A stretch of DNA of 64,000 nucleotides from an uncultured Actinomycetes bacterium (GCA_963727235.1 CAVSFZ010000023.1:248-64247); one strand, 5' to 3'; numbered from the stretch's first letter, positions 22,494-61,268 are shown. The notes: generated from the letters alone by a model not told the origin. Program-made: numbers and translations.

Positions 22494-22526
22494 GTGAATA
22501 AATGGTGCCTGGCACCATTTATTCAC
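22494..22526. repeat. palindromic repeat copy A (33 bp, linker AT)
   Basis: GTGAATAAATGGTGCCTGGCACCATTTATTCAC is a perfect palindrome. It fills the 56-bp gap between two divergent gene starts. Confidence 0.95.
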
Positions 22527-22530
22527 GGTC

Positions 22531-22536
22531 TAGCAT
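22531..22536 (+). promoter_or_regulatory. candidate -10 box (TAGCAT) for a leaderless sulfurtransferase transcript
   Basis: TAGCAT is followed by 6 nt (CCGGTG) and then ATG 22543. It lies 5 nt after palindrome copy A. Confidence 0.3.
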
Positions 22537-22539
22537 CCG

Positions 22540-23385
22540 GTGATGGGATCGGATCTGCTGGTGACGGCCGAGTGGCTTCGTGACCACCTCGACCAGGTGC
22601 GGGTGCTGGACGTGCGCGGCGAGGTGGCAAGTGACGAGCCCCGCTACCGCGCCTACGTCGAGCGCTATCGCGAAGGCCACATCCCCGGAGCCGTGTTCGC
22701 CGACTGGCGCACCGACTTCACCGATCGCGACGCGGATGTGCCCGTGACGCTCGCGCCGCCGGCCGTGTTCGAGGCCGACGCAGCGCGGCTCGGAATCGGA
22801 GCCGACACGGTGGTGGTCGCCTATGACGACTACCGAAACGCGCTCGCGGGACGGATCGCATGGGTGCTTCGAAGTGTGGGGCACGACGCCACCCACATCC
22901 TCGACGGCGGGCTCTCCGCCTGGGAGGCGGCTGGACTCCCACTGGAATCCGGCGAGCACCACCCCGAGCCGCCCGAACCCCCGCTGCGTGTGACCTCGGT
23001 CGACGGGCTGATCGACATCGACGCTGTACGCGACGCGCTGGCCGCCGGCCTCCAGGTCGTGGACGCGCGCTCGACCGCGCAGTACACCGGCGCCGAAACC
23101 CACTCCCGCCGGGCCGGCCACATCCCCGGCGCGATCTCGATGCCGTACACCGACCTGTTGGCACCCGACGGCCGGTTCCTCGAGCCGGAGCAGCTCGCCG
23201 CACGGCTCGCCGAGGCAGGCGTCAACACCTCCGCGCCCGGGGTTACCTACTGCAACGGCGGCGTCTCGGCCACCGTGGTCGCGCACGCCGTCGAGCTCGC
23301 CGGCGGGTCGCGGCCAAGGATCTACGACGGCTCCTGGAATGAGTGGGGCAACCGCAGCGACACCCCTGTCGCCACCGGCGACTAG
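22540..23385 (+). CDS. tandem-rhodanese thiosulfate/3-mercaptopyruvate sulfurtransferase
   Basis: LVTAEWLRDHLDQVRVLDVR, two rhodanese modules, and the active-site loop YCNGGVSA. The start is GTG 22540 or ATG 22543. Confidence 0.85.
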   Translation: MMGSDLLVTAEWLRDHLDQVRVLDVRGEVASDEPRYRAYVERYREGHIPGAVFADWRTDFTDRDADVPVTLAPPAVFEADAARLGIGADTVVVAYDDYRNALAGRIAWVLRSVGHDATHILDGGLSAWEAAGLPLESGEHHPEPPEPPLRVTSVDGLIDIDAVRDALAAGLQVVDARSTAQYTGAETHSRRAGHIPGAISMPYTDLLAPDGRFLEPEQLAARLAEAGVNTSAPGVTYCNGGVSATVVAHAVELAGGSRPRIYDGSWNEWGNRSDTPVATGD

Positions 23386-23530
23386 CGTCCGCCACATGTC
23401 CGGTCGCATGCTCGCGTGCGCGCCTGAGTGGTTAAGATCGCCATTGCGCGGGTGTGGAACCGCCGCATAGCCTTGGTCGCCGGCGATGACGCCGCGACCT
23501 GTGGAAGCAGTCACTGCGAAGGAGGAGTTC

Positions 23531-24928
23531 GTGCCGACCGACCTTGAACGGTTCGTCGCGGCCGATGGCCGGGACGACGCGATCGCGAACGTGCGCAGGC
23601 GTATCGACGCCGAAGGCGTGACCTATATCTACTACCAGTTCATCTCCGTCACCGGACGGATCATGGGCAAAGGCGTACCTGCGCCGCACTGGGAGTCGAT
23701 GGCCAAGAAGGGCTTCCAGCTCGTGTACGGCTCCACCGCCAACCTCTTCACCGACCGCCACGGCGAGTACATCGGGTACGGGCCTGAGGCGTGGGAGCTG
23801 GTGGGCATCCCCGAGCCGGAGACGTTCCAGGTGCTGCCGTGGGACAAGAAGGTGGCGCGGGTGTGGTGCACCTGCTTCCGCGGCCGCGAGGACGAGAAAG
23901 ACGGCGGCGCCTTCCTGACCTCGGACTGTCGCAGCAACCTCAAGCAGATCCAGGCGGCGTTCGAGAAGAGCACCGGCCTGCACCTGCGCGCCGGCACCGA
24001 GCCGGAGATGATGTGGCTGAGGATGAAGGACGACGGCACGCCCGACGTCCAGGGCGCAACCAAGCCCTACTGCTACCACATCGACCAGTTCTCGGAGCTG
24101 CAGCCGGTCATCCACAAGGTGATCGAATACGGCCAGGCGATGGGCCTGGACATGATCCAGGGCGACCACGAGGACGCGCCGGGTCAGATCGAGCTCAACT
24201 TCAACTTCGACCGGGCTGAGCAGACCGCCGACAACCTCTCCACCTTCCGCCAGATCTGCAAGCAGGTCGGGCGCGAGCTGAACGTGTTCCCCTGCTTCAT
24301 GCCCAAGCCGTTCATGGGCGTGTCGGCCAACGGCTGCCACCACAACATCTCGCTGTGGGAAGGCGATACCAACGCCTTCATGCCCGAGGGTGAGGATCAG
24401 CGCCTGCCCAGCCAGATCGGCCTGTACGCGATCGGCGGGGTGCTCGAGCACCTTGCCGCACTGACGGCGGTGACCGCACCGACGGTGAACTCCTATCGAC
24501 GGTTGTGGGACACCGGCTTCTGGGCGCCGGTGTTTGCCGACTGGGGCTTCCAGAACCGCACCACCGCACTGCGCGTGTCGGCGCCGGGACGGTTCGAGTA
24601 CCGCTCGGTCGACTCGGCGGTCAACCCGTACCTGTCGCTGGCGACCCTGATCAAGGCGATGGAGGACGGGATCGAGCGCAAGATCGACCCGGGTCCTCCG
24701 GAGGAGCGAAACATCTACGACGCCATGGCCGGAGGCAAGGAGGTCAAGAGGATTCCGATGACCTTCGGCGACGCCCTCGATGCGCTGGACGAGGACGAGG
24801 TGATCCAGTCGGCCCTGCCCGACGAGATGTTCAAGGTGTTCCGGCACTACAAGCGGGACGAGTGGGAGCGCTACTGCGCCGAGGTGACCGAGTGGGACGT
24901 CAAGGAGTACCTCGACATCCTGCCGTAA
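23531..24928 (+). CDS. glutamine-synthetase-family ligase (GlnT / gamma-glutamylmethylamide-synthetase-like)
   Basis: AGGAGG lies 5 nt before GTG 23531. GS catalytic-domain blocks: HHEDAPGQIELNFNF, KPFMGVSANGCHHNISLW, NSYRRL, and NRTTALRV. Confidence 0.85.
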   Translation: MPTDLERFVAADGRDDAIANVRRRIDAEGVTYIYYQFISVTGRIMGKGVPAPHWESMAKKGFQLVYGSTANLFTDRHGEYIGYGPEAWELVGIPEPETFQVLPWDKKVARVWCTCFRGREDEKDGGAFLTSDCRSNLKQIQAAFEKSTGLHLRAGTEPEMMWLRMKDDGTPDVQGATKPYCYHIDQFSELQPVIHKVIEYGQAMGLDMIQGDHEDAPGQIELNFNFDRAEQTADNLSTFRQICKQVGRELNVFPCFMPKPFMGVSANGCHHNISLWEGDTNAFMPEGEDQRLPSQIGLYAIGGVLEHLAALTAVTAPTVNSYRRLWDTGFWAPVFADWGFQNRTTALRVSAPGRFEYRSVDSAVNPYLSLATLIKAMEDGIERKIDPGPPEERNIYDAMAGGKEVKRIPMTFGDALDALDEDEVIQSALPDEMFKVFRHYKRDEWERYCAEVTEWDVKEYLDILP

Positions 24929-25113
24929 ACCCACCGGGCTGATTTGACGGCTGGGCACCGGGCGACCGGTGTCCAGCGCCGTTAACGGCACCGCCAGTAT
25001 GGAGGATCGGCCATACCGGCAAAGCCTCTTCGGCCGGTACGATTGCTGTCCTACCTCCGGTCTATAAGCGGGATCGGGCCCGCCTTGCCAAGGCCATCCG
25101 AAAGGCGATCAGT

Positions 25114-26043
25114 ATGTGTGGAATCGCAGGAATCATCTATCGAGACGGCGCCCGCGGAGTCGGGCAGGACATGACTCGCATGCTTCAGTCGATGAAGCAT
25201 CGCGGCCCTGATTCGACCGGCTACGCGCTGTTCGCGCCGCCCTCGCCAAACATCGTCATGCGCTACACGCTGGCAGACACCGGCGACGCGCGCGACTTCG
25301 AGTTCGCCGACCGACTCGAACGCCACCGGTTCGAAGTCGAGCACAGGCTGCGGGAGATCGGCGCAACCGTCCACAGCGTGGAGGCCGAGACCGAGTACGC
25401 CTACCGCGCCACGATCGCCTATGACGGCGACCTCAAAAAGCTCGCCGACTACGTCGAGGACGTGCCGGCCGTCGAGGTGCTCTCGCTCGGGCACTCGCTC
25501 GAGATCGTGAAGGACCTGGGCGACGCCGAGACCGTCTCCGACCAGTACGGCCTGGGCGAGTTCAACGGCACCCACGCCATCGGCCACGTGCGCATGGCGA
25601 CCGAATCCGACGTCGACATCTCCGGCGCGCACCCCTACTGGGCGTATCCGTTCTCGGACATCGCCGTGGTGCACAACGGACAGCTGACCAACTACTTCTA
25701 CTGGCGCCGGCGGCTGGAGCGAAGCGGCCATCGGTTCCAGTCCGAGTGCGACTCCGAGATCATCGCGGTGTACCTGGCCGAGAAGATGAGCGAGGGCGAG
25801 ACGCTCGAGCAGGCGATGCACTCCAGCCTGGACGAGCTTGACGGAGTCTTCACCTACATGTGCGTCACCGCCGACGCGCTCGGAGTGGCCAAGGACGAGA
25901 TGGCCGCCAAGCCGCTGGTGCTGTACGAAGGCGAGGACATGGTCGCACTCGCATCCGAAGAGATCGCGATCCGTGCGGTGATCGATCACGAGATCGACAC
26001 CTACGATCCGTATGAGGGGGAGGTGCTGGTATGGACGCGGTAG
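25114..26043 (+). CDS. class-II glutamine amidotransferase domain protein (GlxB/MgsA-like)
   Basis: MCGIAGIIY has the N-terminal catalytic Cys. Also GHVRMATESDV and VVHNGQLTNY. Confidence 0.85.
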   Translation: MCGIAGIIYRDGARGVGQDMTRMLQSMKHRGPDSTGYALFAPPSPNIVMRYTLADTGDARDFEFADRLERHRFEVEHRLREIGATVHSVEAETEYAYRATIAYDGDLKKLADYVEDVPAVEVLSLGHSLEIVKDLGDAETVSDQYGLGEFNGTHAIGHVRMATESDVDISGAHPYWAYPFSDIAVVHNGQLTNYFYWRRRLERSGHRFQSECDSEIIAVYLAEKMSEGETLEQAMHSSLDELDGVFTYMCVTADALGVAKDEMAAKPLVLYEGEDMVALASEEIAIRAVIDHEIDTYDPYEGEVLVWTR

Positions 26044-26819: not shown

Positions 26820-26827
26820 GAGGGACG

Positions 26828-28258: not shown

Positions 28259-28260
28259 TC

Positions 28261-28695: not shown

Positions 28696-28702
28696 GAACG
28701 GG

Positions 28703-29245
28703 GTGACGCTCGCCGTCGTGGCAGTCATCGGGTGCTATGCACTCGGCTGCCTGACGGCGGGCTACTACCTCGTCCGGCTAACGGCCGGCGCGGACGTGCG
28801 CACGGGCGGCACCGGTTCCACCGGGGCCCGCAACGTCGGTCGTGTGGCGGGCGTGCGCGTGGCCGCGCTGACGCTCGCGCTCGACTGTGCCAAGGGAGCG
28901 ATCGCGGTGGCCGTGGCGGGCGCGCTGACCGACTCCACCGCGGTGGCTGCGGCGGCCATGGTGGCGGTGGTCGCCGGCCACGTGTATCCGGCCCAGCTCC
29001 ACTTCCGCGGCGGCCGGGGCCTTGCAACCGCGCTGGGGGCGATGGCGGTGCTCGACTGGCGGGTGGCGCTGGTCGGCGTGGTGGCGGCGCTGCTGGCAAC
29101 TGCCGCGACGCGCACGCCGACGGTGGGCGGATTGGTCGGGGCGGCCTCAGCCCCGGCCGGCGCCGCAGTGCTGGGCGCCGGCCGGGCTGTGATCCTGGGG
29201 ACGCTGGCAACCCTCGCCATCATCCTGGCGGCTCACCGCCGGTGA
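28703..29245 (+). CDS. plsY: glycerol-3-phosphate acyltransferase PlsY-like membrane protein
   Basis: Polytopic hydrophobic protein with GGTGSTGARNVGR (compare the PlsY GSGNxGATN motif), LDCAKGAIAV and FRGGRGLATALG. Its stop TGA 29243-29245 lies inside palindrome copy B. Confidence 0.7.
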   Translation: MTLAVVAVIGCYALGCLTAGYYLVRLTAGADVRTGGTGSTGARNVGRVAGVRVAALTLALDCAKGAIAVAVAGALTDSTAVAAAAMVAVVAGHVYPAQLHFRGGRGLATALGAMAVLDWRVALVGVVAALLATAATRTPTVGGLVGAASAPAGAAVLGAGRAVILGTLATLAIILAAHRR

Positions 29246-29272
29246 ATAACGGTGCCTGGCACCGTTATTCAC
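29242..29272. repeat. palindromic repeat copy B (31 bp, linker C; 33 bp if the flanking G...C pair is counted)
   Basis: GTGAATAACGGTGCCTGGCACCGTTATTCAC is perfect. The flanks CACCGCC (29234-29240) and GGCGGTG (29276-29282) extend the inverted repeat. Confidence 0.95.
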
Positions 29273-29286
29273 CCTGGCGGTGTGGA

Positions 29287-29319
29287 GTGAATAATTGGTG
29301 CCTGGCACCAATTATTCAC
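29287..29319. repeat. palindromic repeat copy C (33 bp, linker TT)
   Basis: GTGAATAATTGGTGCCTGGCACCAATTATTCAC is perfect. It lies 14 bp from copy B and contains the stop codon (29316-29318, minus strand) of the FAD oxidoreductase gene. Confidence 0.95.
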
Positions 29320-30626
29320 GACCAGGGATACGGGCTGTGGGATACCGGGTGGAGGGCGCCGGTGGTGAAGCGCTCGTAGGTGAACGGCTCGAGCACGCGG
29401 GATTCGCCGCCGGTCATGACACGGGCGACCTCGCGGCCCACGCCGATCATCTTGTAACCGTGGTTGGAGTCGGCGATCACGTACACGTTGGGCAGCATGT
29501 AGTCGAACACCGGGAAGCTGTCGACGGTGAAGCAGCCGACCCCGCCCGAGCGGATGTTCTTGTAGGTGGGCCGCTTGCCCTCGAAGCGGGCCATGCAGTG
29601 TGACAGCGAGGCGCACCACATGTCGGCGAAATCCGACTCGACCGATGCGGTGGGATACGGGTCGACTTCGTAGTCATGGCCGACCACCACCGGCGCGGCT
29701 CCACCCTGCACGCCGTGGAGATCCTGCTTGAAGTAGTTGCCCCAGAACTCGTCGGTGACCAGCTTGCCCTCGTCGTCGTACAGAGGCGCGTCCGAATCGA
29801 CATGCAGCACCGGCGGCATCGAGCCGTCCTCCAGAGACAGCAGCTTGGGGTCGACGCCGATCTCACCCTCCTGGAGATACCAGTACGTCCACATCTCCTG
29901 GTCGCGGTGCACCTGCCCGTCGGGCGTATGCACGTCGAGCGTGTTCGGGAGGCCGAGCATCGTCCAGATGCGCTCGATCCAGGGGCCGACCCCGACCACG
30001 ACCTGCTCGACCTCGATGTCGCCCTGGTCGGTGTTGACCTTGGTGACCGCCCCGCTGGAGTCGGTCTCGAATCCGGTGACGCGGACGCCCTCGATCAGGC
30101 GGGCACCGGCCTGCTTGGCCTTGGCAGCGAGACCGTGCAGCGAGGCCATGTTGTTGGCAAAGCCGCCCTTCTGCTCATGCAGGCACACGTGCACCCCTTG
30201 CGCCCGCCAGTCGGGGAACATCGCCTTCATGTGCTCGCGCACCTCGGCTTCGCCGACGATCAACTGCGACGGGTACCCGATCCGGGCCTGCCGCTGGTGC
30301 ACCTCGGTGAGATCGGTGATCTGACGCTCGGCGCCGAGTGCGACGTACCCGACGTCGTGGTAGCTGAAGGCCTGCGGATCCTGCTCCCACACCTCGACGT
30401 TTGCGGCCATCAGCTCGCTCATCGCGGGCTGGTAGTAGTTGTTGCGCACAACCCCACAGGCGATGCCCGAGGCCCCGGCGCCGACACCGGTCTTGTCGAT
30501 CACCAGCACGTCCGGCTCCTCCCCGCGCGCTGTCTGTTCCTTGGCGAGATGCCAGGCCGAGGAGAGGCCGTGGATCCCGGCTCCGATGACGAGGTACTTG
30601 GCGCGCGACGGCAGGCTCATGAACAC
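29316..30626 (-). CDS. FAD-dependent oxidoreductase (DAO / sarcosine-oxidase-beta-like family)
   Basis: YLVIGAGIHGLSSAWHLAK dinucleotide fold, GACGVVRNNY-type block (GIACGVVRNNYYQP), 436 aa. Confidence 0.8.
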   Translation of the reverse strand: MFMSLPSRAKYLVIGAGIHGLSSAWHLAKEQTARGEEPDVLVIDKTGVGAGASGIACGVVRNNYYQPAMSELMAANVEVWEQDPQAFSYHDVGYVALGAERQITDLTEVHQRQARIGYPSQLIVGEAEVREHMKAMFPDWRAQGVHVCLHEQKGGFANNMASLHGLAAKAKQAGARLIEGVRVTGFETDSSGAVTKVNTDQGDIEVEQVVVGVGPWIERIWTMLGLPNTLDVHTPDGQVHRDQEMWTYWYLQEGEIGVDPKLLSLEDGSMPPVLHVDSDAPLYDDEGKLVTDEFWGNYFKQDLHGVQGGAAPVVVGHDYEVDPYPTASVESDFADMWCASLSHCMARFEGKRPTYKNIRSGGVGCFTVDSFPVFDYMLPNVYVIADSNHGYKMIGVGREVARVMTGGESRVLEPFTYERFTTGALHPVSHSPYPWS

Positions 30627-30701
30627 CCTTTCCAGTAGATTGCCACTACGGCAAAGCCATTTCCATTTCTGCTGTCATCGTAGTTCGCCCTGCCCCAGGC
30701 G

Positions 30702-31475: not shown

Positions 31476-31480
31476 CAGCC

Positions 31481-31487: not shown

Positions 31488-31495
31488 GACGGGAG

Positions 31496-32121: not shown

Positions 32122-34146
32122 GTGCGTTCGATCCCCCGCCCCCACTTCCGTTTCGGCCTGCTCGGTACCTTCGCGCTGATCAGCGCGGTACCGGTGCTGC
32201 TGCTGGGCCTGGTGCTCGCCAATGTGCTGGGCAACCAGATCCGCGACCGCAGCATCAACTCGACCGTCCAAGGCATCGAGTTTGCCACCCAGGTCGGGAT
32301 CGGCCCGGCGGTTGCCAAAGGCCAGCTCAAGGACAGTCCGCTCGGCAGAAAGACCATGAAGAAGGTGGACGCCGCAGTGAAGTTCAAGGGCTCACCGTTT
32401 GCCCGGGTGAACATCTGGTCACCGGACCAGACCCTGGTGTACTCCAGCGACCACAAGCTGATCGGGACGAACATCGAGCCCTCTGACGAGCTGGTTGAGA
32501 CGCTCGAGCGAAGCGAGCCGACCACCGAGATCGTGCACGCCTCCCAGCCGCTCAAGACCGAGGCTGACAACCGTGACATCCTCAAGACCCACGGCGACCT
32601 GCTCGAGGTGTACGTCCCCTTCAAAGCAGAAGCGCGACACCAGCCACGAGGAGCGTTCGAGGTCTATCTCCCCTACACCCCCATCGCACACACGATCCGG
32701 GCGGACACCAACCGCCTGTACCTGATCCTGATCGTGGGCCTGTCGCTGCTGTATGCGATCGTTTTCCGGGTGGTCGCGCGGGCGTCGCGCAAGCTGCGGA
32801 CGCACGGCAAGGAGATGAGCGCGCACCTGGAGCGCACCAAATACGAGTCCGAGCATGACCCGCTCACCCACCTGCCCAACCGCACCCTGTTTCGCAGCCG
32901 CGCGGTGGACGCGATCGTGGCCGCCCGCCGCACCGGCGAGCAGGCCGCCCTGCTGCTGATCGACCTCGATCGGTTCAAGGAGATCAACGACACGCTCGGC
33001 CACCACTCCGGCGACCTGCTGCTCCAGGCGATCGGACCGCGGCTGGAGAAGATCCTGCACCCGTCCGATCTGCTCGCCCGTTTCGGAGGCGACGAGTTCG
33101 GAATCCTGCTGCCCCAGATCCCTGACGCCGAGACGGCGCTGGTGGTGGCCCGCAGCGCGCACAAGATGCTGGAGCAGCCGTTCGCCATCCAGGGCCTGAC
33201 GCTGGACGTGGAAGCCTCGATCGGGATTGCGCTGTTCCCCGACCACGCCCAGGACTTCGAGGAGCTGATGCAGCACGCCGACGTGGCCATGTATCTGGCC
33301 AAGGGCAAACGCACCGGCTACGAGGTGTACCAGGCCAGTGACGACGACGCCGACGCCGGACGGCTGAAGCTCGCCGGTGACCTGCGCGACGCGGTCGACC
33401 GCCACGAGCTGGTGCTGCACTACCAGCCGAAGGTCAACCTGCGTTCAGGGCGCGTGATCGGAGCCGAGGCGTTGATGCGCTGGCATCACCCCGGCCAGGG
33501 GCTGCTGATGCCCGACCGGTTCATCCCCTTGGCGGAACGCAGCGGACTGATCCGATCGCTGACGGTGTTCGCGATCGAGACGGCGGTGCGGGAGTGCCGT
33601 CGCTGGATCGACGCCGGCGCAGCCCTGACCGTCTCGGTCAACCTCTCCACCCGCGACCTGATCGACATCCAGCTGCCCGAGGACGTCGACAAGCTGCTGA
33701 AGCAGTGGCGGGTACCGGCCGGCAGCCTGGAGCTCGAGATCACCGAGAGCGTGCTGATGGCGGATCCCACCCGTGCCCGCGAGGTGGTGTCGCGGCTGGG
33801 CGCGCTGGGCGTGAAGGTCTCGATCGACGACTTCGGGTCGGGCTACTCGTCGCTGGGGTACCTCAACCGGCTGGCCGTGAACGACCTCAAGATCGACAAG
33901 TCGTTCGTGCTCAACATGATCGAGGACGCCGGCGACGCGGTGATCGTGCAGTCGACGATCGATCTCGCCCACAACCTCGGGCTGGAGGTTGTGGCAGAGG
34001 GCGTCGAGACCCAGCAGGCCTATGACCGTCTGCGATCGATGGGCTGTGACACCGCCCAGGGCTACTTCATCAGCCGCCCGATGCCGGGCGCAGAGCTGGT
34101 CGACTGGGTCGGCGCCCACGGCAACAGCCGCCTCCGCGCCGCCTAG
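32122..34146 (+). CDS. membrane sensor with GGDEF and EAL domains
   Basis: Two TM segments flank an extracytoplasmic region of about 190 aa. HDPLTHLPNR...RFGGDEFGILL is the GGDEF domain. EALMRWHHP...DDFGSGYSSLGYL...KIDKSFV is the EAL domain. Confidence 0.9.
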   Translation: MRSIPRPHFRFGLLGTFALISAVPVLLLGLVLANVLGNQIRDRSINSTVQGIEFATQVGIGPAVAKGQLKDSPLGRKTMKKVDAAVKFKGSPFARVNIWSPDQTLVYSSDHKLIGTNIEPSDELVETLERSEPTTEIVHASQPLKTEADNRDILKTHGDLLEVYVPFKAEARHQPRGAFEVYLPYTPIAHTIRADTNRLYLILIVGLSLLYAIVFRVVARASRKLRTHGKEMSAHLERTKYESEHDPLTHLPNRTLFRSRAVDAIVAARRTGEQAALLLIDLDRFKEINDTLGHHSGDLLLQAIGPRLEKILHPSDLLARFGGDEFGILLPQIPDAETALVVARSAHKMLEQPFAIQGLTLDVEASIGIALFPDHAQDFEELMQHADVAMYLAKGKRTGYEVYQASDDDADAGRLKLAGDLRDAVDRHELVLHYQPKVNLRSGRVIGAEALMRWHHPGQGLLMPDRFIPLAERSGLIRSLTVFAIETAVRECRRWIDAGAALTVSVNLSTRDLIDIQLPEDVDKLLKQWRVPAGSLELEITESVLMADPTRAREVVSRLGALGVKVSIDDFGSGYSSLGYLNRLAVNDLKIDKSFVLNMIEDAGDAVIVQSTIDLAHNLGLEVVAEGVETQQAYDRLRSMGCDTAQGYFISRPMPGAELVDWVGAHGNSRLRAA

Positions 34147-34150
34147 CTCG

Positions 34151-34183
34151 ATGAATAATTGGTGCCTGGCACCAATTATTCAT
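34151..34183. repeat. palindromic repeat copy D (33 bp, linker TT, terminal bases A...T)
   Basis: ATGAATAATTGGTGCCTGGCACCAATTATTCAT is perfect. It lies between convergent stops at 34146 and 34194. Confidence 0.95.
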
Positions 34184-34193: not shown

Positions 34194-34676
34194 TCACGGT
34201 CCCTCTCCCGCGACCCAGAGGAGACAGGGGGCGCGCTTGCGGACGCGCCGGGAGATGCGTGCGAACAGGCGTGGTCGGAACCTCGACCGGTCGGGGCCGA
34301 GCACCAGCAGGCCCGCCTGATACTCACCTGCCAGGTCGAGCACGGCATCGACCGGCTTGGCCGAAGGTACACGCAGGTGCTCCACCTCGAGCCCGAGACC
34401 TGCCATCTGCGCCACCAGCTCCCGGATCCGCGCACGATCCTCGTCCAGCTCCAGCTCGGCGTAGCGCATGGTCAGCGCCTGCGGCCACCACGGCCGCTCC
34501 ACCGCGTCGACCACGATCAACCGGGCGTTGGTCTCCAGCGCCGCTTGGGCCGCCACCCGCACCGCCTCGGGATCGAACGGCACCGCCAGCGTGGCCAGGA
34601 TCACCACGCTGCTTCGTGAGTGGCTCCCCCGTTCCTCGACCGGCGGTTCGACGGTGGTCGAATCGCGAACGTTCAC
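34194..34676 (-). CDS. USP-like (adenine-nucleotide alpha-hydrolase-like) protein, paralog 1
   Basis: 161 aa from GTG 34676. VVILATLAVPFDPEAVRVAAQAALE...LLVLGPDRSRFRPRLFARISRRVRKRAPCLLWVAGEGP. The C-terminal xxAPCxxxV resembles universal stress proteins. Collinear with ORF 36819..37304. Confidence 0.6.
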   Translation of the reverse strand: MNVRDSTTVEPPVEERGSHSRSSVVILATLAVPFDPEAVRVAAQAALETNARLIVVDAVERPWWPQALTMRYAELELDEDRARIRELVAQMAGLGLEVEHLRVPSAKPVDAVLDLAGEYQAGLLVLGPDRSRFRPRLFARISRRVRKRAPCLLWVAGEGP

Positions 34677-34775
34677 GCCGCCTATCTTCGCGGATGGGCG
34701 GCCGCACGGCAAGGAGCTCGCCGACAGAACCACAGGGGGCGGGCCGCTTGGCCCGCCCCCTCACGACTCCTCAGT

Positions 34776-36438: not shown

Positions 36439-36822
36439 GTGAAACTCCCTCTCCCACACGCGTTCGCGCCGCCGCGGCTGACGCTTCGCTGCGAGTGCGG
36501 CACCGAAGGACTGGTGGGCTATGGCGACCAGTGGACGTGCCCAAACTGCGGCCGAAACTATGACACGTCACACATCCCCAGCGAGGATTACGACCGCATC
36601 CTCGCCCTCAACCGCCGGTACACGATCGGTGCGGTGGCAGTGGTTGCCGTGCTCGCCGTGATCGTGTTGGTAATCGCGATCACAGGGCAGATCGTCACGA
36701 TCTTCGCCGGATTGGCCCTGACCCTGCTCGGCTGGTTTCTCTTCATCAAACCCGTCATCCATCGACGGCACAAGAATGCCGTCGGCGATCTCGTGCGCAA
36801 CTGGGATCTGGAGGCCGAGTGA
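36439..36822 (+). CDS. zinc-ribbon protein with two C-terminal transmembrane segments
   Basis: LRCECGTEGLVGYGDQWTCPNCGRNYD (CxC...CxxC), then IGAVAVVAVLAVIVLVIAITG and IFAGLALTLLGWFLFI. GAGGAAG lies 8 nt before GTG 36439. Its stop overlaps the next start (GTGA). Confidence 0.55.
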   Translation: MKLPLPHAFAPPRLTLRCECGTEGLVGYGDQWTCPNCGRNYDTSHIPSEDYDRILALNRRYTIGAVAVVAVLAVIVLVIAITGQIVTIFAGLALTLLGWFLFIKPVIHRRHKNAVGDLVRNWDLEAE

Positions 36823-37304
36823 CCCGGACGGTCGACTCCGGCCCACGGGTACCCGAAGCCCCGCGACTCGACGGCGACTCTCGCGGCCAGCCGGTGGTGC
36901 TCGCCACCCTGGCAGTGCCGTTCGAGCCCGAGTCAGCCCGAGTCGCAATCCAGGCGGCGCTGGAAAGCCATGCCAAGCTGGTGGTCGTGGACGCGGTCGA
37001 GATGCCGCTGTGGCACCAGTGCCTGACCACCCGCCGAGCAGAGCTCGAGCTGGACGAGGACCGGCAGGAGATCCGGCGGCTGGTCGGAGATGCGCACGGC
37101 CTGGGATTGCAGGTCGAGCACCTGCGAGTGCGCAGCCCGCGGCCGGTGGACGCCCTGCTCGAGGTGGTGGAGGAGTGCAATGCCGGCCTGCTGGTGCTCG
37201 GCCCCGACCCCGCCAGGCTCACCAAACGGCTGTTCGCACGCGCGGTGCGCAAGATCCGCAAGCGGGCGCCGTGCCTGACGTGGATCGCCGGCGAAGGCCC
37301 CTGA
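36819..37304 (+). CDS. USP-like (adenine-nucleotide alpha-hydrolase-like) protein, paralog 2
   Basis: 161 aa. VVLATLAVPFEPESARVAIQAALE...LLVLGPDPARLTKRLFARAVRKIRKRAPCLTWIAGEGP. Same length as 34194..34676 and collinear with it. Confidence 0.6.
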   Translation: MTRTVDSGPRVPEAPRLDGDSRGQPVVLATLAVPFEPESARVAIQAALESHAKLVVVDAVEMPLWHQCLTTRRAELELDEDRQEIRRLVGDAHGLGLQVEHLRVRSPRPVDALLEVVEECNAGLLVLGPDPARLTKRLFARAVRKIRKRAPCLTWIAGEGP

Positions 37305-37313: not shown

Positions 37314-37346
37314 GTGAATAAAAGGTGCCTGGCACCTTTTATTCAG
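37314..37346. repeat. palindromic repeat copy E (33 bp, linker AA; last base G instead of C)
   Basis: GTGAATAAAAGGTGCCTGGCACCTTTTATTCAG. It contains the stop codon (37343-37345, minus strand) of the CheW-CheC gene. Confidence 0.95.
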
Positions 37347-38350
37347 GCCGCGCGCCGGCCCAGGCCGAGGTTCTGGAGCAGTGCCTCGACCGAAGCGATG
37401 CGGGGCATGAACAGGAACGAGAACTGCGCGTCTGTGGAATCGACGCTCATCACCGAGCGCATCATCACCACCGGATCTCCTGGGTCGACGCCGGCCAGGC
37501 AGCGCTCGACCAGCGAGCCCAGCACATCCACGTCCACCACGGGCGGCTCGGGATCGAGCGTCATGCCGGTCATCTCCACGATCGCATTCAGGTATGAGCT
37601 GGCCAGGATGTTTCCCACCTCGCCCAGCGCAGACCGGCCCACCTCGTCGTCGATGTTCGTCCCCAGCAGCCGGCAGACGCTTCCGCCCGATCCTTCCGGG
37701 AACATCAGCAGCACGCGGCCGCCGTCTCGCCGCACCGCCGTCTCGATCACGGCCGACGCGGCGGCGGACGAACCGATCTTGTCGGCCGCCTCGGCCACCG
37801 TCACCAGTGCCGCATCGGGGTAGCTGATCTCGACAGGGCGGCCAAGCAAGGCCGACAACGAGGTGGCGGCATTCCCCGAACCGATGTTGGCGACCTCGAA
37901 CAACGCACTTCGCTGCATCTCGCTGAACCCGAAGGCGTCGCCGGTCAGCGGCGCCCAGGCACCCGCGACCACTCCCGGCTCGACCACCGGCACCACCTCA
38001 CCGCCGTCGATGACCACGATCCCGGCCACATACGGGCCCCGGGCGACCGCCGGCACCTCGACCCGCTCCAGCCACATCTGGCCGATCAGCTCGTCCACGG
38101 CGAACGCGCGGCGGCGACCTCCGGCCCAGACGATCACGGCCGATCGGCGATCGGCGTGGGCGCCGACACCCAGCACATCGGCGATGTCGACCACCTCCAG
38201 CGCCGAGTCGCGGAACATGACCATGGGCACGCCTGCGACCCGATGCACGCTGCGCCCCGTCAGCTCGAGTGTCTGATCGACGTTGTCGATCGGAACGGCC
38301 CACAGCATGCCCCCCGCCTTGACGACGAGAACGTGGACGGGTTCGGACAT
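37343..38350 (-). CDS. CheW-like domain fused to a CheC-type (CheC/CheX/FliY family) phosphatase domain
   Basis: The N-terminal ~130 aa are CheW-like (HVLVVKAGGMLWAVPIDNVDQTLEL...VAGVPMVMFRDSALEVVDIADVLG...AVIVWAGGRRRAFAVDELIG). The C-terminal half has two CheC motifs: ALFEVANIGSGNAATSLSALLG and ALGEVGNILASSYLNAIVEMTG. Confidence 0.8.
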   Translation of the reverse strand: MSEPVHVLVVKAGGMLWAVPIDNVDQTLELTGRSVHRVAGVPMVMFRDSALEVVDIADVLGVGAHADRRSAVIVWAGGRRRAFAVDELIGQMWLERVEVPAVARGPYVAGIVVIDGGEVVPVVEPGVVAGAWAPLTGDAFGFSEMQRSALFEVANIGSGNAATSLSALLGRPVEISYPDAALVTVAEAADKIGSSAAASAVIETAVRRDGGRVLLMFPEGSGGSVCRLLGTNIDDEVGRSALGEVGNILASSYLNAIVEMTGMTLDPEPPVVDVDVLGSLVERCLAGVDPGDPVVMMRSVMSVDSTDAQFSFLFMPRIASVEALLQNLGLGRRAA

Positions 38351-48579: not shown

Positions 48580-49171
48580 CAGCGACGATCCCTACCTGTC
48601 CTCGACCGTCGAGGAGTTCCTCGATTCGCTGGCCGGTCGCACCCCCGCCCCAGGCGGGGGTGGAGCGGCTGCTGTGACCTGTGCGATGGCCGCCGCGTTG
48701 GTTGAGATGGCGACCTCGTTCGGGTCGGCCCGCGGCCTGGAGCGCACGCACGAGCGCGCGCATCAGCTGCGGCTGACGGTGCAGCAGCTGGCCCACGCCG
48801 ACGGCGAGGCCTACGGCGCGGTGATCGCGGCGTTACGCCTGCCGCTCGGCGAAGACCGCCAGCACCAGCTCGACGCCGCGGTGGCGGGGGCGATCGCATC
48901 GCCGATGGCGATACTCGAGATCGCGTCCGAGGTGGCCACGCTGGCCGCTGACGTGGCCGAGACCGGTAACCGCAACCTGGAGGGCGATGCGCTCACCGGC
49001 GCGCTGCTCGCCGAGGCCGCATCGCGCTCAGCCGCGACCCTCGCCCAGCTGAACGTGACCATGCTCTCGCGCCACGCCATGATCGACGCCCACCTCGAGG
49101 ATCTCCGACCCGCACTGGCCCGCGCCACCCGCGCTCGCGAGCGCGCGGTCAGCGCCTACGCAGCCATGTGA
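48548..49171 (+). CDS. cyclodeaminase/cyclohydrolase-family protein (FTCD C-terminal domain; methenyl-THF cyclohydrolase-like)
   Basis: FLDSLAGRTPAPGGGGAAAVTCAMAAALVEMA. The start is ATG 48548 or 48554 and overlaps the fhs 3' end. The stop TGA 49169-49171 lies inside palindrome copy F. Confidence 0.75.
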   Translation: MRMEKQSDSSSSDDPYLSSTVEEFLDSLAGRTPAPGGGGAAAVTCAMAAALVEMATSFGSARGLERTHERAHQLRLTVQQLAHADGEAYGAVIAALRLPLGEDRQHQLDAAVAGAIASPMAILEIASEVATLAADVAETGNRNLEGDALTGALLAEAASRSAATLAQLNVTMLSRHAMIDAHLEDLRPALARATRARERAVSAYAAM

Positions 49172-49200
49172 ATAAAAGGTGCCTGGCACCTTTTATTCAC
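49168..49200. repeat. palindromic repeat copy F (33 bp, linker AA)
   Basis: GTGAATAAAAGGTGCCTGGCACCTTTTATTCAC is perfect. Confidence 0.95.
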
Positions 49201-49226
49201 ACCCCCCTCCAACGCGGTGCCGCCCG

Positions 49227-49257
49227 GTGAATAACGGTGCCTGGCACCGTTATTCAC
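49227..49257. repeat. palindromic repeat copy G (31 bp, linker C)
   Basis: GTGAATAACGGTGCCTGGCACCGTTATTCAC is identical to copies B and J. It lies 26 bp after copy F. Confidence 0.95.
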
Positions 49258-51061: not shown

Positions 51062-51063
51062 CC

Positions 51064-51094
51064 GTGAACAACGGTGCCTGGCACCGCTATTCAC
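51064..51094. repeat. palindromic repeat copy H (31 bp type, degenerate)
   Basis: GTGAACAACGGTGCCTGGCACCGCTATTCAC has two arm mismatches. It starts 3 nt after the purE stop. Confidence 0.9.
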
Positions 51095-53389: not shown

Positions 53390-53637
53390 AGATCACCGTC
53401 ACCGTGCGACCGCGAGACGGCATCCTCGACCCCCAGGGCGAGACGCTGCGGCGATCGCTGGCCGGGCTGGGATACGCGGCCTCCGCGGTGCACGCGGGCA
53501 AGGTGTTCGACCTCGAGCTCGATGTCGACGACCCGGCCGAGGCCCACCGGCTGGCCGAGGAGATCGCCGACCGGCTGCTGGCCAACCCGCTGATCGAGCA
53601 GTACGCGATCGAGTCGCCGGCCGAGGCTCCCGCGTGA
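53386..53637 (+). CDS. purS: FGAM synthase subunit PurS
   Basis: 83 aa. MKITVTVRPRDGILDPQGETLRRSLAGLGY. GTGA overlap with purC. Confidence 0.9.
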   Translation: MKITVTVRPRDGILDPQGETLRRSLAGLGYAASAVHAGKVFDLELDVDDPAEAHRLAEEIADRLLANPLIEQYAIESPAEAPA

Positions 53638-56509: not shown

Positions 56510-56513
56510 CCCG

Positions 56514-57929: not shown

Positions 57930-58951
57930 CCGACCCCGAGCCGCTCACCTACGCTGACGCGGGTGTCAGCCTCGACGCCGCCGAAACGGTCGTCGACCGG
58001 ATCCGATCGGCGGTCGCTTCGACCCACTCACGCGAGGTGCTGGACAACCATGGGGGCTTCGCCGGACTGTTCACCCCCAGCGTGGGTGACCCGCTGATCT
58101 CGGCGGGGTGTGACGGAGTCGGCACCAAGGTGCTGCTGGGCCTCGCCGCCAGGCGGTTGCACGGGCTGGGCGTCGACCTGGTGGCGATGAGCGTCAACGA
58201 CGTGATCACCTCCGGCGGCCGGCCGGCATTCTTTCTCGATGTGATCACCTGCGGGCGGATCGACCCGGACACGATCGCGGAGCTGGTCGAGGGCATCGCC
58301 GACGGCTGTAAACAGGCCCGCTGTGCCCTCCTGGGCGGCGAGACCGCCGAGCACCCCGACATGATGCAGCCCGATGAGATCGATCTGGCCGGATTCTGCG
58401 TCGCCCTGTCGGAGCGGCGCGAGCTGGTCTCCGGTGCCCGTGTCAAACCCGGCGATGCCATCATCGCGCTGCCCTCCAGCGGTCCGCACTCCAACGGCTT
58501 CTCGCTGATTCGGCGGTTGCTGGAACGGGCAAACGTCGACCTCGACTCGACCCCCGCCGAGCTGGGAGGAGCGTCAGTCGCCGACGCGCTTCTGGAGCCG
58601 ACCAGGATCTATGCAGCGCCGGTGAATGAGCTGACCCGCACGGTCGATGTCCGCGGCATGGCGCACATCACCGGGGGCGGCATACCGGGAAACCTGACTC
58701 GCCAGTTCCCCGACGGCACCGGGGCAAAGATCGATCTGGGCTCGTGGACGCGGCCGGCGGTGTTCGACTGGCTGGCGGGACTGGGAGTGGAAGAGCAGGA
58801 GATGCGCGCGGTGTTCAACCTCGGCGTGGGTTTCGCCGCGGTCGTCGAGCAGGAGTCGGTGGACACGGCGCTGACCGCCCTGGAACGGGGCGGCTGTCCC
58901 GGTTGGGTGGCGGGCACGGTGACCGCATCCTCGGGGGTGGAGCTGACCTGA
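57926..58951 (+). CDS. purM: phosphoribosylformylglycinamidine cyclo-ligase
   Basis: LTYADAGVSLDA, DGVGTKV, LGGETAEHP, and PSSGPHSNGFSL. Confidence 0.95.
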   Translation: MTDPEPLTYADAGVSLDAAETVVDRIRSAVASTHSREVLDNHGGFAGLFTPSVGDPLISAGCDGVGTKVLLGLAARRLHGLGVDLVAMSVNDVITSGGRPAFFLDVITCGRIDPDTIAELVEGIADGCKQARCALLGGETAEHPDMMQPDEIDLAGFCVALSERRELVSGARVKPGDAIIALPSSGPHSNGFSLIRRLLERANVDLDSTPAELGGASVADALLEPTRIYAAPVNELTRTVDVRGMAHITGGGIPGNLTRQFPDGTGAKIDLGSWTRPAVFDWLAGLGVEEQEMRAVFNLGVGFAAVVEQESVDTALTALERGGCPGWVAGTVTASSGVELT

Positions 58952-59475
58952 GGATCGGGGTCCTGATCTCGGGCAACGGCACCAACCTGCAGGCGCTGAT
59001 CGATGCCGGCGACATCGAGATTGCGTGCGTGGTCTCGAGCCGCGCAGATGCGCCGGGCATTGGGCGTGCGGAGCGAGCCGCGATTCCGGTGATCGCCACG
59101 ACCGACGAGGGGGACACCGCGGCCTTTCTGGAGCAGCATGAGGTGGAGCTGGTGGTGCTGGCGGGATATATGCAGATCCTCACCCCCGCCTTTCTCGCCC
59201 GATTCCCGCGGGGGGTGATCAACGTCCACCCGTCGCTGCTACCCGCGTTCCCCGGACGCACCGCGATCGCCGACGCGCTCGCCCACGGCGTGCGTGTCAC
59301 CGGAGTCACGGTGCACCGGGTGGACGCCGGTATCGACACCGGCCCCATCCTGCTGCAGGAGGCCGTGACGGTTCCGTATGATGACGACGCCTTGGATCTC
59401 GAGGATCGCATCCACCAGGTTGAGCACCGGCTGCTGGTACAGGCGGTGCGCGACATCCGAACTCAGGGACGGTGA
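58948..59475 (+). CDS. purN: phosphoribosylglycinamide formyltransferase
   Basis: RIGVLISGNGTNLQALID, LAGYMQIL, INVHPSLLPAF, and VTVHRVDAGIDTGPIL. The start codon is uncertain: the nearest in-frame candidate is CTG 58948, overlapping the purM stop. Confidence 0.85.
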   Translation: MRIGVLISGNGTNLQALIDAGDIEIACVVSSRADAPGIGRAERAAIPVIATTDEGDTAAFLEQHEVELVVLAGYMQILTPAFLARFPRGVINVHPSLLPAFPGRTAIADALAHGVRVTGVTVHRVDAGIDTGPILLQEAVTVPYDDDALDLEDRIHQVEHRLLVQAVRDIRTQGR

Positions 59476-61016
59476 CCATGAAGATCGCACGCGCTCTGAT
59501 ATCGGTTTCGGACAAGAACGGGCTGTCGACGTTCGCCCAGGGGCTGCACAAGCTCGGAGTGGAGCTGATCTCGACGTCGGGGACCGCGGATTTCCTCGAG
59601 TCGGCGGGGCTCCCGGTCACCCGGGTGGAGACGCTCACCGAACAGGCCGAGCTGCTGGACGGCCGGGTAAAGACGCTTCATCCCGTTGTATTCGCCGGCA
59701 TTCTGGCGCGACGCGACAACGTCGAGGACATGGCGTCGCTGCGCGAGCGGGGGATCCAGCCGATCGACATGGTGGTCTCGAACCTGTACCCGTTCCGCTC
59801 GGTGGCCGGGCGGCGGGGGGTGCCCGATCACGAGGTGCTCGAGAACATCGACATCGGCGGCCCGTCGATGGTCCGAGCTGCCGCCAAGAACCACGTGGCG
59901 GTAGCGGTCGTGACCGAGCCCGAGCGCTACGGCTTCGTGCTGGATGAGCTGCGCTCGCGCAACGGCGAGCTGTCGGCAGAAACCCGCCGGGAGCTGGCCG
60001 GCGACGCCTTCTCGCACACCGCATCGTATGACGCGGCGATCGCAACCTGGTTCACCGACACCGAGCCGTTCCCGGAACGACTCACCCTCGACTACCTCAA
60101 GGTCACCGACCTGGCTTATGGGGAGAATCCGCACCAGCGCGCTGCCTTCTATCGCGACGCCGGCGCGCGCCGAAACCTGTTGTCACGCGTCGAGCAGCAC
60201 GGCGGCCCACAGCTCTCGTTCAACAACCTCGGAGATCTCCAAGCCGCGCGAATGCTGGCTGCCGCCTTCCAGGTGCCGGCGGTGGTGATCATCAAGCACG
60301 CGATCCCCTCGGGCGTGGCGGTTGGCGCGAGCCTGAGCCAGGCGTTCGATCAGGCACTCGCATGTGATCCTGCCGCAGCGTTCGGCGGGGTAATTGCGGT
60401 CAACCGGCCGGTGTCAGCCGACCTGGCGGCGGCCATGACCGAGCGCAAGCTGGACGTGCTGTTCGCGCCCGGCTACGAGGATGGAGCGCTGGAAGTGCTG
60501 CAGCGCAAGGAGAGCCTTCGCATCCTCGAGGACAAGGAGCGGCGCAAAGCCTCGCCGGGCGAACGCGACGTGCGCAGAGTGCTGGGCGGGCTGCTGGTGC
60601 AGGATCGCGACATGGAGCTGGACGAGCGCGAGACGATGACGGTGGTGACAGAAGCCTCGCCCACCAAACGGCAGTGGGACGACCTGCTGTTCGCCTGGCG
60701 GGTGGCGCATTTCGTGCGTTCCAACGCGATCGTGCTGGCCCGCGACCTGGCGACCGTCGGCATCGGGGCCGGCCAGGTCAGCCGGGTGGACGCGGTGCGG
60801 CTCGCGATCGAGAAGGCCGGCGAGCGGGCCGGTGAGTCGGTGTTGGCCTCAGACGCCTTCTTCCCGTTCGAAGACGGCCCGAAAGCGGCCTTCGACGCGG
60901 GCGTAACGGCGGTGATTCAGCCGGGCGGGTCGGTGCGAGACGACGATATCGTTGCAGCCGCCAACGCCGCCGGCGTGTCGATGGTCTTCACCGGCCGCCG
61001 CCACTTCGCCCACTGA
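59472..61016 (+). CDS. purH: bifunctional AICAR transformylase / IMP cyclohydrolase
   Basis: RALISVSDKNGL, STSGTADFL, GRVKTLHP, and the C-terminal ASDAFFPF...VIQPGGSVRD...TGRRHFAH. The start is GTG 59472 (GTGA overlap) or ATG 59478. Confidence 0.95.
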   Translation: MTMKIARALISVSDKNGLSTFAQGLHKLGVELISTSGTADFLESAGLPVTRVETLTEQAELLDGRVKTLHPVVFAGILARRDNVEDMASLRERGIQPIDMVVSNLYPFRSVAGRRGVPDHEVLENIDIGGPSMVRAAAKNHVAVAVVTEPERYGFVLDELRSRNGELSAETRRELAGDAFSHTASYDAAIATWFTDTEPFPERLTLDYLKVTDLAYGENPHQRAAFYRDAGARRNLLSRVEQHGGPQLSFNNLGDLQAARMLAAAFQVPAVVIIKHAIPSGVAVGASLSQAFDQALACDPAAAFGGVIAVNRPVSADLAAAMTERKLDVLFAPGYEDGALEVLQRKESLRILEDKERRKASPGERDVRRVLGGLLVQDRDMELDERETMTVVTEASPTKRQWDDLLFAWRVAHFVRSNAIVLARDLATVGIGAGQVSRVDAVRLAIEKAGERAGESVLASDAFFPFEDGPKAAFDAGVTAVIQPGGSVRDDDIVAAANAAGVSMVFTGRRHFAH

Positions 61017-61136
61017 GGCTGGTCCGCGGCGGCTCTGGCGGCGTCCCACGCGGCGGTGCGGTGCTCAACGTGGCTTTGCCACGCCTCCGCTCCGCCCACC
61101 GCTCGATCCTTGCCAGAACCACCGCGTCCTGCGCCT

Positions 61137-61224
61137 CAGGGCGCCTGTCGAACCTGAGCGTTACTTGAATAATTGGTGCCTGGCACCAATTATTCACAGG
61201 GCGCGTGTCGAACCTGAGCGGTAC
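61137..61224. repeat. 28-bp direct repeat pair bracketing palindrome copy I
   Basis: CAGGGCGCCTGTCGAACCTGAGCGTTAC (61137-61164) and CAGGGCGCGTGTCGAACCTGAGCGGTAC (61197-61224) match at 26 of 28 positions and are offset by 60 bp. Confidence 0.9.
61165..61197. repeat. palindromic repeat copy I (33 bp, linker TT; first base T instead of G)
   Basis: TTGAATAATTGGTGCCTGGCACCAATTATTCAC. Confidence 0.95.
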
Positions 61225-61237
61225 TCGGCGTAAGACG

Positions 61238-61268
61238 GTGAATAACGGTGCCTGGCACCGTTATTCAC
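61238..61268. repeat. palindromic repeat copy J (31 bp, linker C)
   Basis: GTGAATAACGGTGCCTGGCACCGTTATTCAC is identical to B and G. The last two codons and the TAA stop of the glycosyltransferase (GGT GAA TAA, minus strand, stop 61261-61263) are repeat sequence. Confidence 0.95.

Follow-up and report, generated by a model that had tools for sequence, protein, structure and literature searches.

What is the short palindrome that recurs ten times between positions 22494 and 61268 of a 64,000-nt stretch of DNA from an uncultured Actinomycetes bacterium (GCA_963727235.1, CAVSFZ010000023.1:248-64247; hereafter the window), and why does it stand where genes end? The window has a G+C content of 65-70% (67% for the genome), which makes the AT-rich arms of the palindrome, GTGAATAA/TTATTCAC, conspicuous. 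We found that it is a member of an abundant, previously uncatalogued repeat family of the same kind as the repetitive extragenic palindromes (REP) and the tuberculosis rho-independent terminators (TRIT), and not a new kind. With a probability of roughly 60%, we read it as a REP/TRIT-like palindrome that spreads by copy-and-paste and acts as a bidirectional terminator or 3'-end hairpin.

The initial annotation described ten copies, A to J, as perfect palindromes of 31-33 bp lying between genes. All ten were located at the positions it gave, and the window holds exactly ten. The 13-nt core with at most one mismatch is expected 0.14 times according to shuffled sequences, and the full pattern with arms did not occur in the shuffles at all. 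A search allowing six errors yielded no eleventh copy in the window and none in the shuffles. The linkers between arm and core fall into the classes listed earlier, namely C/G in B, G, H, and J, TT/AA in C, D, and I, AT/AT in A, and AA/TT in E and F. They are complementary in 10/10 copies, and to this extent the claim of perfect symmetry stood; copies H, E, and I, on the other hand, carry uncompensated mismatches. Copy H (51064-51094, GTGAACAAC...GCTATTCAC) has two T>C changes, neither of which compensates the other, and the outermost pair is mismatched in E (last base G instead of C) and I (first base T instead of G). The C-type usually has an extra G...C pair, so that both length classes are effectively 33 bp.

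The family was surveyed in a single scan of genomes representing species, for which the arms were trimmed by two bases. It occurred in at least 89 stretches from at least 13 species-level metagenome-assembled genomes (MAGs), with at least 132 copies in 764 kb. The collected loci, denoted below by L numbers, amount to only ~1-2% of the host genomes concerned. Statistics on anatomy refer to 130 copies in these 764 kb and some tests to 123 copies; genes were called with a GC3-based caller, and the calls in the window were checked against Pfam. All carriers among the matches listed were labelled uncultured Actinomycetes (Microflora Danica bins), Gaiellales, or Thermoleophilia, Gaiellales being an order within Thermoleophilia, Actinomycetota. 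Contigs L013 and L080 of MFD03975.bin.2.246 and L076 of MFD02134.bin.3.227 share 90-95% identity with the window over 6-8 kb, and a soil contig from ENA (L090) is 94% identical to it.

No catalogued counterpart was found. The window had no Rfam match at the gathering score, and at E<=10 it gave only chance matches to microRNA hairpins (~20 bits, against gathering scores of 65-86). The motif was absent from the viral, plasmid, and phage collections, which contained no carriers. The searchable literature yielded no relevant paper, either by full-text sequence or by lineage and repeat topic. The earlier impression of an unrecognised family was thereby upheld, and the presence of the same element in at least 13 species-level MAGs established it as a dispersed repeat. 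In a metagenome scan with PurD for the orthologous junctions of copies F, G, and H, all PurD homologs retrieved were distant (45-55% identity). Of three window proteins looked up by exact match, two had no record.

The unit consists of the arm (G)TGAATAA, a linker of 1-2 nt, the core GGTGCC-W-GGCACC, the complementary linker, and the arm TTATTCA(C). The bracketed outer G/C pair is present in 79% of the copies; T stands at -1 in 119/123 copies and G at -2 in 97/123. Symmetry reaches 9-10 nt past the 13-nt core and then falls to chance level. Since 247 of 249 half-sites lie within full palindromes, and the remaining two form a single copy lacking the centre base, the palindrome and not the half-site is the unit. 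Anchoring on the arms only recovered an identical core every time, except in the copy without the centre base. The hexamer GAATAA occurs 262 times in the 764 kb, and 249 of these occurrences belong to the element.

Six symmetric linker pairs were counted among the 130 copies (C/C 61, AT/AT 17, AA/AA 14, TT/TT 9, CC/CC 7, and AC/AC 2), and 20 copies were asymmetric in the linker. The linkers thus match in 110/130 copies (85%), compared with ~31% expected for independently chosen arms. The covariation claimed earlier was confirmed on 85 distinct aligned sequences: 90.7% of the cells paired, versus 34-46% with slid partners, and both-side changes in two linker pairs numbered 20 and 41, or 61 together. 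Compensation extends to a rare arm variant (GTGCATAA...TTATGCAC) and to a core variant, GGGGCC-T-GGCCCC, found twice in chromosome OY969804.1. Because the linkers match and these core and arm variants are compensated, the symmetry is a property of a single strand or a hairpin rather than of half-sites acting independently. The self-complementarity stressed in the earlier proposal is supported; the compensatory changes, however, are mostly not the result of site-by-site selection, as the comparison of orthologs below indicates.

The placement of the family is that of a 3'-end element. Copies occupied 51/127 convergent gene junctions (40%), 32/438 codirectional ones, and 5/124 divergent ones (4%), giving an odds ratio of 16 for convergent versus divergent junctions (Fisher p = 7e-13). 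Divergent gaps are the largest (median 207 bp), yet they are occupied tenfold less than convergent ones. Where a convergent junction lacks a copy, the gap is 7.5 bp in the median, and mostly the genes are 0-10 bp apart or overlap; in this lineage, a convergent pair therefore either abuts or has the element between its genes. Only 2/130 copies were called genic.

The contact with the coding ends is closer than the word intergenic suggests. Of 137 genes facing a copy, 71 have their stop codon inside the arm, at offsets -4 and -8; 41 end on the TGA of G-TGA-ATAA and 29 on the TAA of GTGAA-TAA. A further 29 stop within 10 nt, so that 100/137 end inside the arm or no more than 10 nt away. In the window, the claim that all copies are intergenic fails for five of them, where the stop codon of a flanking gene is part of the arm (TGA for B, C, E, and F; TAA for J). 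The claim that six of the seven loci lie at gene ends was correct: B/C, D, E, and I/J stand between convergent genes, and F/G and H at same-direction junctions of a purine cluster. The element also marks where folding is strong. Per 60 nt, element-bearing 3' ends gave -27.9 kcal/mol, element-free ends -19.7 kcal/mol, and internal coding controls -21.5 kcal/mol; 3' ends without the element showed no excess folding over the internal coding controls, with the reservation that whole-region folding energy discriminates poorly in G+C-rich DNA. A generic hairpin-plus-T-run scan detected no canonical terminators at these junctions.

Two orthologous sites were found in both filled and empty form, and in both the coding ends are intact to the base. 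The empty form of site 1 reads ...CGCGGT TGA G CTA GACGAC..., with two convergent stop codons 1 nt apart. The filled form reads ...CGCGGG TGAATAATT-core-GATTATTCA GACGAC..., and both frames still end at the same codon position, on the TGA and TCA of the element itself. At site 2, CAGGG^TCAGGC corresponds to CAGGG-TGAATAAAT-core-ATTTAT-TCAGGC, a 28-nt insertion abutting an existing TCA stop codon that now forms the end of the right arm. Neither site shows a target duplication. Across 123 copies, flank identity did not exceed the control at any boundary offset for target-site duplications of k = 2-6. Folds of the window alone had suggested that the flanks pair around the copies. Insertion into older terminator hairpins was nevertheless rejected, as the complementarity of the flanks equalled that of mismatched-partner controls (-7.35 vs -7.60 kcal/mol, 123 copies).

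Copies at one site change type. The L076 ortholog of copy E, which has AA linkers in the window, belongs to the C-type. So does the L076 ortholog of copy D, a TT-type copy in the window; the spacer in L076 is different and non-homologous, and both coding ends are conserved. For copy F, the window shows the AA-type with T at the centre and L080 the C-type with A, and the orthologous loci L027 and L045 carry a TT-type and a C-type copy, respectively. In all, about 4/10 orthologous pairs at 90-95% identity had switched linker type on both arms together. Since both arms changed at only 5-10% divergence, these switches do not represent independent compensatory mutations. Array size differs as well, one copy in L053 corresponding to three in L015. 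In L090, the ortholog of copy G is chimeric (left linker TT, right linker CC) and is accompanied by a decayed copy; such a chimera is the expected product of recombination between neighbouring copies. An imperfect private arm variant, GTGAAGTAATT, is common to three unlinked loci. The type switches and the shared imperfect variant point to copy-and-paste or gene conversion of masters that were already symmetric.

Close doublets have a structure of their own. In 11 of 12, a C-type copy is paired with a 2-nt type (one-sided binomial p ~0.003). A dimer consisting of a TT-type copy, a spacer of 11-14 nt (13 nt in five), and a C-type copy occurs at seven mutually non-homologous loci (window 29242-29319, L010, L015, L024, L038, L052, and L082). 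The gene contexts of these loci differ, and the spacer sequence is not conserved.

A second hairpin repeat follows the same positional logic. Between the purH stop and copy I lies a 127-nt rod-like hairpin on the minus strand (61013-61139, CTGAGGCGCAGG...CCAGCCTCAG) that is unrelated to the palindrome and has no Rfam match. Its ends are C-TGA-GG...CC-TCA-G, and the window copy overlaps the purH stop codon (61014-61016). Full copies were also found in L002 (3171-3297), L025 (3890-4014), L060 (1673-1799), and L081 (between 824 and 1007), and short derivatives keeping both ends in L076, L015, and L038. The rod always lies 10-35 nt from a 33-bp palindrome. Among its 49 predicted pairs, 13 show both-side changes across five copies. 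In 4/4 full copies that could be checked (window, L002, L025, and L060), the stop codon of a gene falls in the terminal triplet of the rod. That two unrelated hairpin repeats obey it argues for a positional logic of gene ends and hairpins rather than of one DNA-binding protein.

The 33-mer is predicted to fold as RNA into a stem of 15 bp capped by a CUG or CAG triloop (-20 to -24 kcal/mol), and as DNA with -14.5 to -16.6 kcal/mol. It contains a G+C-rich stem-loop with the top GGUGC-CUG-GCACC, followed on the 3' side by (N)NUUAUUCA, a stretch with 4-6 U that pairs with the A-rich arm; a generic scan does not report the copies. Canonical intrinsic terminators have a U-rich tract of 7-9 nt directly behind the stem. 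As a hairpin followed by a U-rich stretch would be read from either side, a terminator or 3'-end hairpin is the most likely function. When transcription arrives from either side, the G+C top would form while the U-rich (N)NUUAUUCA is still in the hybrid, which is the geometry of an intrinsic terminator, and the A-rich arm would make it bidirectional. The AA type (UUUUAUUCA) would come nearest to a canonical terminator and the TT type would be furthest from it. At the minimum, the element would protect, as a 3'-end hairpin, genes packed so tightly that a terminator would otherwise find no room. A role as 3'-end stabiliser or as brake on terminating ribosomes would be compatible with termination; such a brake is reported for REPs of E. 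coli that lie within 15 nt of a stop codon (PMC12306157).

For the spread of the family, we propose that symmetric masters are inserted by copy-and-paste, without target duplication, against or onto stop codons. As the arms hold TGA and TAA in two frames on both strands, the element can replace the last codon of one or two genes and leave the proteins unaltered. Copies already in place would later give way to other members of the family or be converted by them. Both the symmetric switches and the invariant core would follow from ectopic gene conversion among hundreds of copies; this idea was raised earlier for REPs (Higgins et al. 1988, as cited in PMC12306157). The absence of duplication, the 3-nt adjoining sequence, and the dependence on a hairpin make the putative mover resemble the single-strand HUH transposition of IS200/IS605 and the REP-associated tyrosine transposases (RAYTs; PMC3733652). 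The data show the family, its symmetry and placement, its insertion polymorphism and type turnover, and hence the copying of the element to gene 3' ends and its renewal there; termination and a mobilising enzyme are the two parts of this account that we infer.

A number of results weigh against it. Copies A and G and five copies elsewhere lie upstream of genes or between divergent genes, and a strong terminator at these 5' sites would be harmful. If the whole palindrome is counted as the stem, no U-tract follows, and the copies were not called in a generic hairpin-plus-T-run scan. According to one report (PMC3993855), mycobacterial RNA polymerase needs a U-tract. Imperfect copies showed no preference for keeping the RNA hairpin of the sense strand (7 vs 6), and G-U pairs were not enriched among the mismatches. 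No Y1/HUH transposase was detected below E = 0.9 with two Pfam-validated Y1_Tnp probes in the six-frame open reading frames (ORFs) of the 764 kb (~1-2% of the genomes), and Pfam identified no transposase-like domain among the window genes. Finally, enrichment at 3' ends is also expected of a selfish element filtered by selection.

The last of these objections is the core of a competing view, in which the element is a purely selfish, non-autonomous mobile palindrome, similar to REPs, miniature inverted-repeat transposable elements (MITEs), or palindrome-associated transposable elements (PATEs), and does nothing for its host. Gene ends would then be favoured through a preference for TGA/TCA targets and through the selective removal of insertions from genes and promoters, the built-in stop codons rendering it harmless. 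Insertion polymorphism, type turnover, chimeras, array expansion, a propagated private variant, and the dimer unit are all in line with such an element, as are the TGA...TCA ends shared by both hairpin families and the copies in 5' regions (A, G, and the five divergent cases). The same junction is also occupied in distant relatives (74-82% identity) in 4 of 6-7 cases, which is not clearly above the convergent background of ~40%. Selfishness does not, however, account for the divergent gaps, which offer the largest non-coding targets and are used least. This tenfold depletion is what a transcription-blocking hairpin would show, and it is most simply explained if the hairpin blocks transcription, a terminator property. 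Convergent genes, moreover, otherwise have almost no spacer and no other hairpins, and the 764 kb have so far revealed no transposase. We therefore consider a complete lack of host function somewhat unlikely. A post-transcriptional RNA element, which would protect against 3' exonucleases or slow terminating ribosomes through a hairpin at the stop codon, appears less probable still. It would suit the 100/137 facing stop codons in or near the arm and the stable RNA hairpin, and REPs less than 16 nt from a stop codon are reported to down-regulate translation (the RepRanger paper, PMC12306157, citing earlier work). Such a role is not exclusive of termination, though; there is no strand-specific RNA signature, and the housekeeping genes plsY, purE, and purH would be odd targets for down-regulation.

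Binding of a symmetric protein dimer to double-stranded DNA (a nucleoid-associated protein, a partition protein, or a global regulator that organises the chromosome or regulates the neighbours) would account for the nearly invariant 13-nt core, for arms that are highly conserved across species and AT-rich in a 67% G+C genome, and for copy A in a promoter region; the authors of the TRIT study likewise suspected a binding factor (PMC3152330). A dimer, however, needs neither complementary nor equally long linkers, and this option, which the initial annotation had left standing, provides no explanation for the 110/130 that match. Functionally unrelated neighbours, ~150 copies per Mb at 3' ends, which is unlike an operator pattern, and the existence of a compensated core variant make it very improbable. 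The uptake-sequence analogy fared worse. Inverted pairs of DNA uptake sequences doubling as terminators, as in Neisseria, share with the element only a general resemblance, that of an abundant short motif inverted at gene ends. Uptake sequences are common as single copies inside genes, whereas half-sites of the palindrome never stand singly, apart from the pair in the copy without a centre base, and 249/262 GAATAA hexamers in the 764 kb belong to it; this possibility can practically be dismissed. A different proposal is an undescribed system that delivers hairpin caps to TGA stops and regenerates symmetry by self-templating, with an enzyme that is neither a RAYT nor a classical transposase. 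It would fit the two unrelated TGA...TCA hairpin repeats, the precise insertion, the symmetric switching, and the fixed-spacing dimer, and we regard it as doubtful. The copy-and-paste palindrome with a terminator or 3'-end hairpin function remains our choice.

Among known systems, REP and TRIT had been named as analogues in the initial annotation, rightly so in terms of placement and structure. TRIT comprises 147 palindromic, mostly bidirectional, sequence-conserved hairpins whose centres fall around position -8 relative to the stop codon (Gardner et al. 2011, PMC3152330). They make up most of the stable structures at gene ends and have been reported only from Mycobacterium (PMC3152330). With its conserved sequence, bidirectionality, high-G+C actinobacterial host, and narrow stop-codon overlap, the present element finds its closest functional analogue in TRIT. 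The hosts here are Thermoleophilia-type MAGs, however, and the likeness is one of description. The element adds symmetric linker types, a fixed-spacing dimer, and insertion seen at filled and empty sites. Ordinary bidirectional intrinsic terminators share the A-rich stretch, G+C hairpin, and T-rich stretch on both strands between convergent genes, but they are not sequence-conserved repeats. The T-rich stretch of the element is also short (UUAUUCA, or UUUUAUUCA in copies with AA linkers), and it pairs with the A-rich arm.

Structurally, the element comes closest to the REPs, bacterial interspersed mosaic elements (BIMEs), and REPINs of Proteobacteria, which are mobilised by RAYTs. These are likewise palindromes of 20-40 bp, high in copy number, extragenic, and downstream of genes, and occur as singletons, dimers, and arrays that vary between species; roles in termination, mRNA stability, and translation have been proposed. 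Most REPs are found between ORFs that are convergent or unidirectional (Di Nocera et al. 2013, PMC3733652), and the dimer unit described here is reminiscent of REPINs and BIMEs. The differences are specific. The GTAG/CGTC end tag is not present, the ends being GTGA...TCAC and both symmetric, and the palindrome is perfect, without the loop-side mismatches needed for RAYT cleavage (PMC3733652). Both arms contain stop codons. The symmetry of the element makes head-to-head dimers indistinguishable from head-to-tail ones. Lacking both tag and imperfect stem, it belongs with the untagged REP-like palindromes of M. tuberculosis, D. radiodurans, Bordetella, Brucella, and cyanobacteria, which have no conserved tag and no known dedicated transposase (PMC3733652); they have other sequences and occur in other lineages, and the likeness is by description only. 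PATEs, which derive from IS200/IS605, share the missing target duplication, the short adjoining target (here TGA/TCA), and the hairpin dependence; they have distinct left and right ends, whereas the element is one symmetric hairpin. The comparison with single-strand, hairpin-guided insertion rests on IS608/ISDra2. A MITE was ruled out by the lack of a target-site duplication, and a DNA uptake sequence by the lack of solitary half-sites.

The individual copies in the window illustrate these relations. Copy A (22494-22526), a perfect 33-bp palindrome with AT linkers, is the exceptional seventh locus, standing where 56 bp separate two divergent genes, which encode an APH-family kinase (21425-22483, minus strand) and a rhodanese (22540-23385, plus strand). 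Copies B (29242-29272, C-linker, 33 bp with the flanking G/C pair) and C (29287-29319, TT-linker) together form one of the dimers, with a 13-nt spacer. The TGA in the left arm of B (29243-29245) ends a plsY-like gene (28703-29245), and the TCA in the right arm of C (29316-29318) is the stop of a convergent FAD-oxidoreductase gene (29316-30626, minus strand). A promoter-like match in a consensus scan (TTCACC, 16 nt, AATAAT) extends over 29268-29295, from the right arm of B into the left arm of C, and is probably incidental. Copy D (34151-34183, TT-linker), with the terminal pair A...T, lies between convergent GGDEF-EAL (stop 34144-34146) and Usp (stop 34194-34196) genes. Copy E (37314-37346, AA-linker, last base G) begins 9 nt downstream of the end of a further Usp gene, and its right-arm TCA (37343-37345) is the stop of a CheW-CheC gene (37343-38350, minus strand). 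The two Usp genes (34194-34733, minus strand; 36819-37304, plus strand) are inverted paralogs with ~70% DNA identity as judged by cross-matches; their 3' ends face copies D and E, and an amino-acid permease gene lies between them.

Copy F (49168-49200, AA-linker) provides with its left-arm TGA (49169-49171) the stop of an FTCD_C gene, and copy G (49227-49257, C-linker) lies ~45 bp upstream of the purD start (49303). Between F and G, where the window has 26 bp (49200-49227), L080 carries a 1.73-kb insert (2358-4088) and L090 a 0.54-kb remnant (1076-1633). Both contigs are 94-95% identical to the window around this indel, and one endpoint coincides with the edge of copy F. The L080 insert contains two minus-strand ORFs of 184 and 298 aa, and its G+C content appears lower by eye, not by measurement. 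As a source of the mobilising gene this cassette was rejected, the two ORFs having no Pfam domain. Copy H, C-linker with the two T>C changes, starts 2 nt past the purE stop and precedes purB. In the sense direction (purE to purB), its predicted RNA hairpin has -14.0 kcal/mol; the antisense hairpin retains G-U pairs and has -22.7 kcal/mol. The orthologs of H in L080 and L090 are perfect. This single case may reflect relaxed termination inside the pur cluster.

Copy I (61165-61197, TT-linker, first base T) is flanked exactly by a 29-nt direct repeat (61137-61165 and 61197-61225; 93% identical), which duplicates a conserved 5' extension of the 127-nt rod. As a target duplication this repeat was rejected, being a one-off that no other copy has. 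Copy J (61238-61268, C-linker) contains in its right arm a TTA (61261-61263), the TAA stop of a glycosyltransferase gene (61261-62439, minus strand). The right-arm stops of C and E are likewise read as TCA on the given strand.

The centre base of the palindrome is T on the plus strand in 10/10 window copies (p ~0.002), two of which are flipped in the L080 and L090 orthologs. An orientation linked to replication or transcription was rejected, as T and A are mixed over short distances elsewhere and neighbours agree 18:15. The centre base also bears no relation to contig position or to gene direction (23 A, 16 T). The two copies with the core GGGGCC-T-GGCCCC (L008 6998 and L069 7590) make up a subfamily with the arms TGAAT(A)TT, each located 240-470 bp from a canonical copy. 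An unrelated metagenome contig (L132, Ga0335394_10082322) contains at ~354-376 a 23-bp palindrome, CAATAGGTGCCAGGCACCTATTG, with the same 13-nt core and other arms. It lies between two ORFs on one strand and may represent a sister family of another lineage.

The first 22 kb of the window contain no copy, and their three convergent junctions overlap or are 6 bp apart. The rpsF-ssb-rpsR-rplI-dnaB cluster (12552-15943) is located in this copy-free part; in other Actinomycetota, the cluster lies near the replication origin. Two adjacent paralogs of ~630 aa with DUF5122 beta-propeller repeats (3842-5722 and 5876-7798, minus strand) are found there too. Their DNA identity of ~65% comes from an off-diagonal match of 6559-7624 to L013 and not from a gene-to-gene alignment.

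What makes the family noteworthy is the combination of built-in stop codons, precise capping of coding ends, rapid symmetric turnover, and a fixed-spacing dimer. For Thermoleophilia/Gaiellales MAGs, the motif sharply marks gene 3' ends and operon boundaries as well as lineage membership, and its insertion polymorphisms could serve as strain markers. If the hairpins terminate transcription, they would account for transcription punctuation in a compact, high-G+C, uncultured actinobacterial lineage. Convergent genes in this lineage often lie 0-10 bp apart and have no ordinary terminators. The family would then be a second independent case, beside TRIT, of a sequence-conserved terminator overlapping stop codons, and it prompts the question of what disperses such elements and keeps them uniform.

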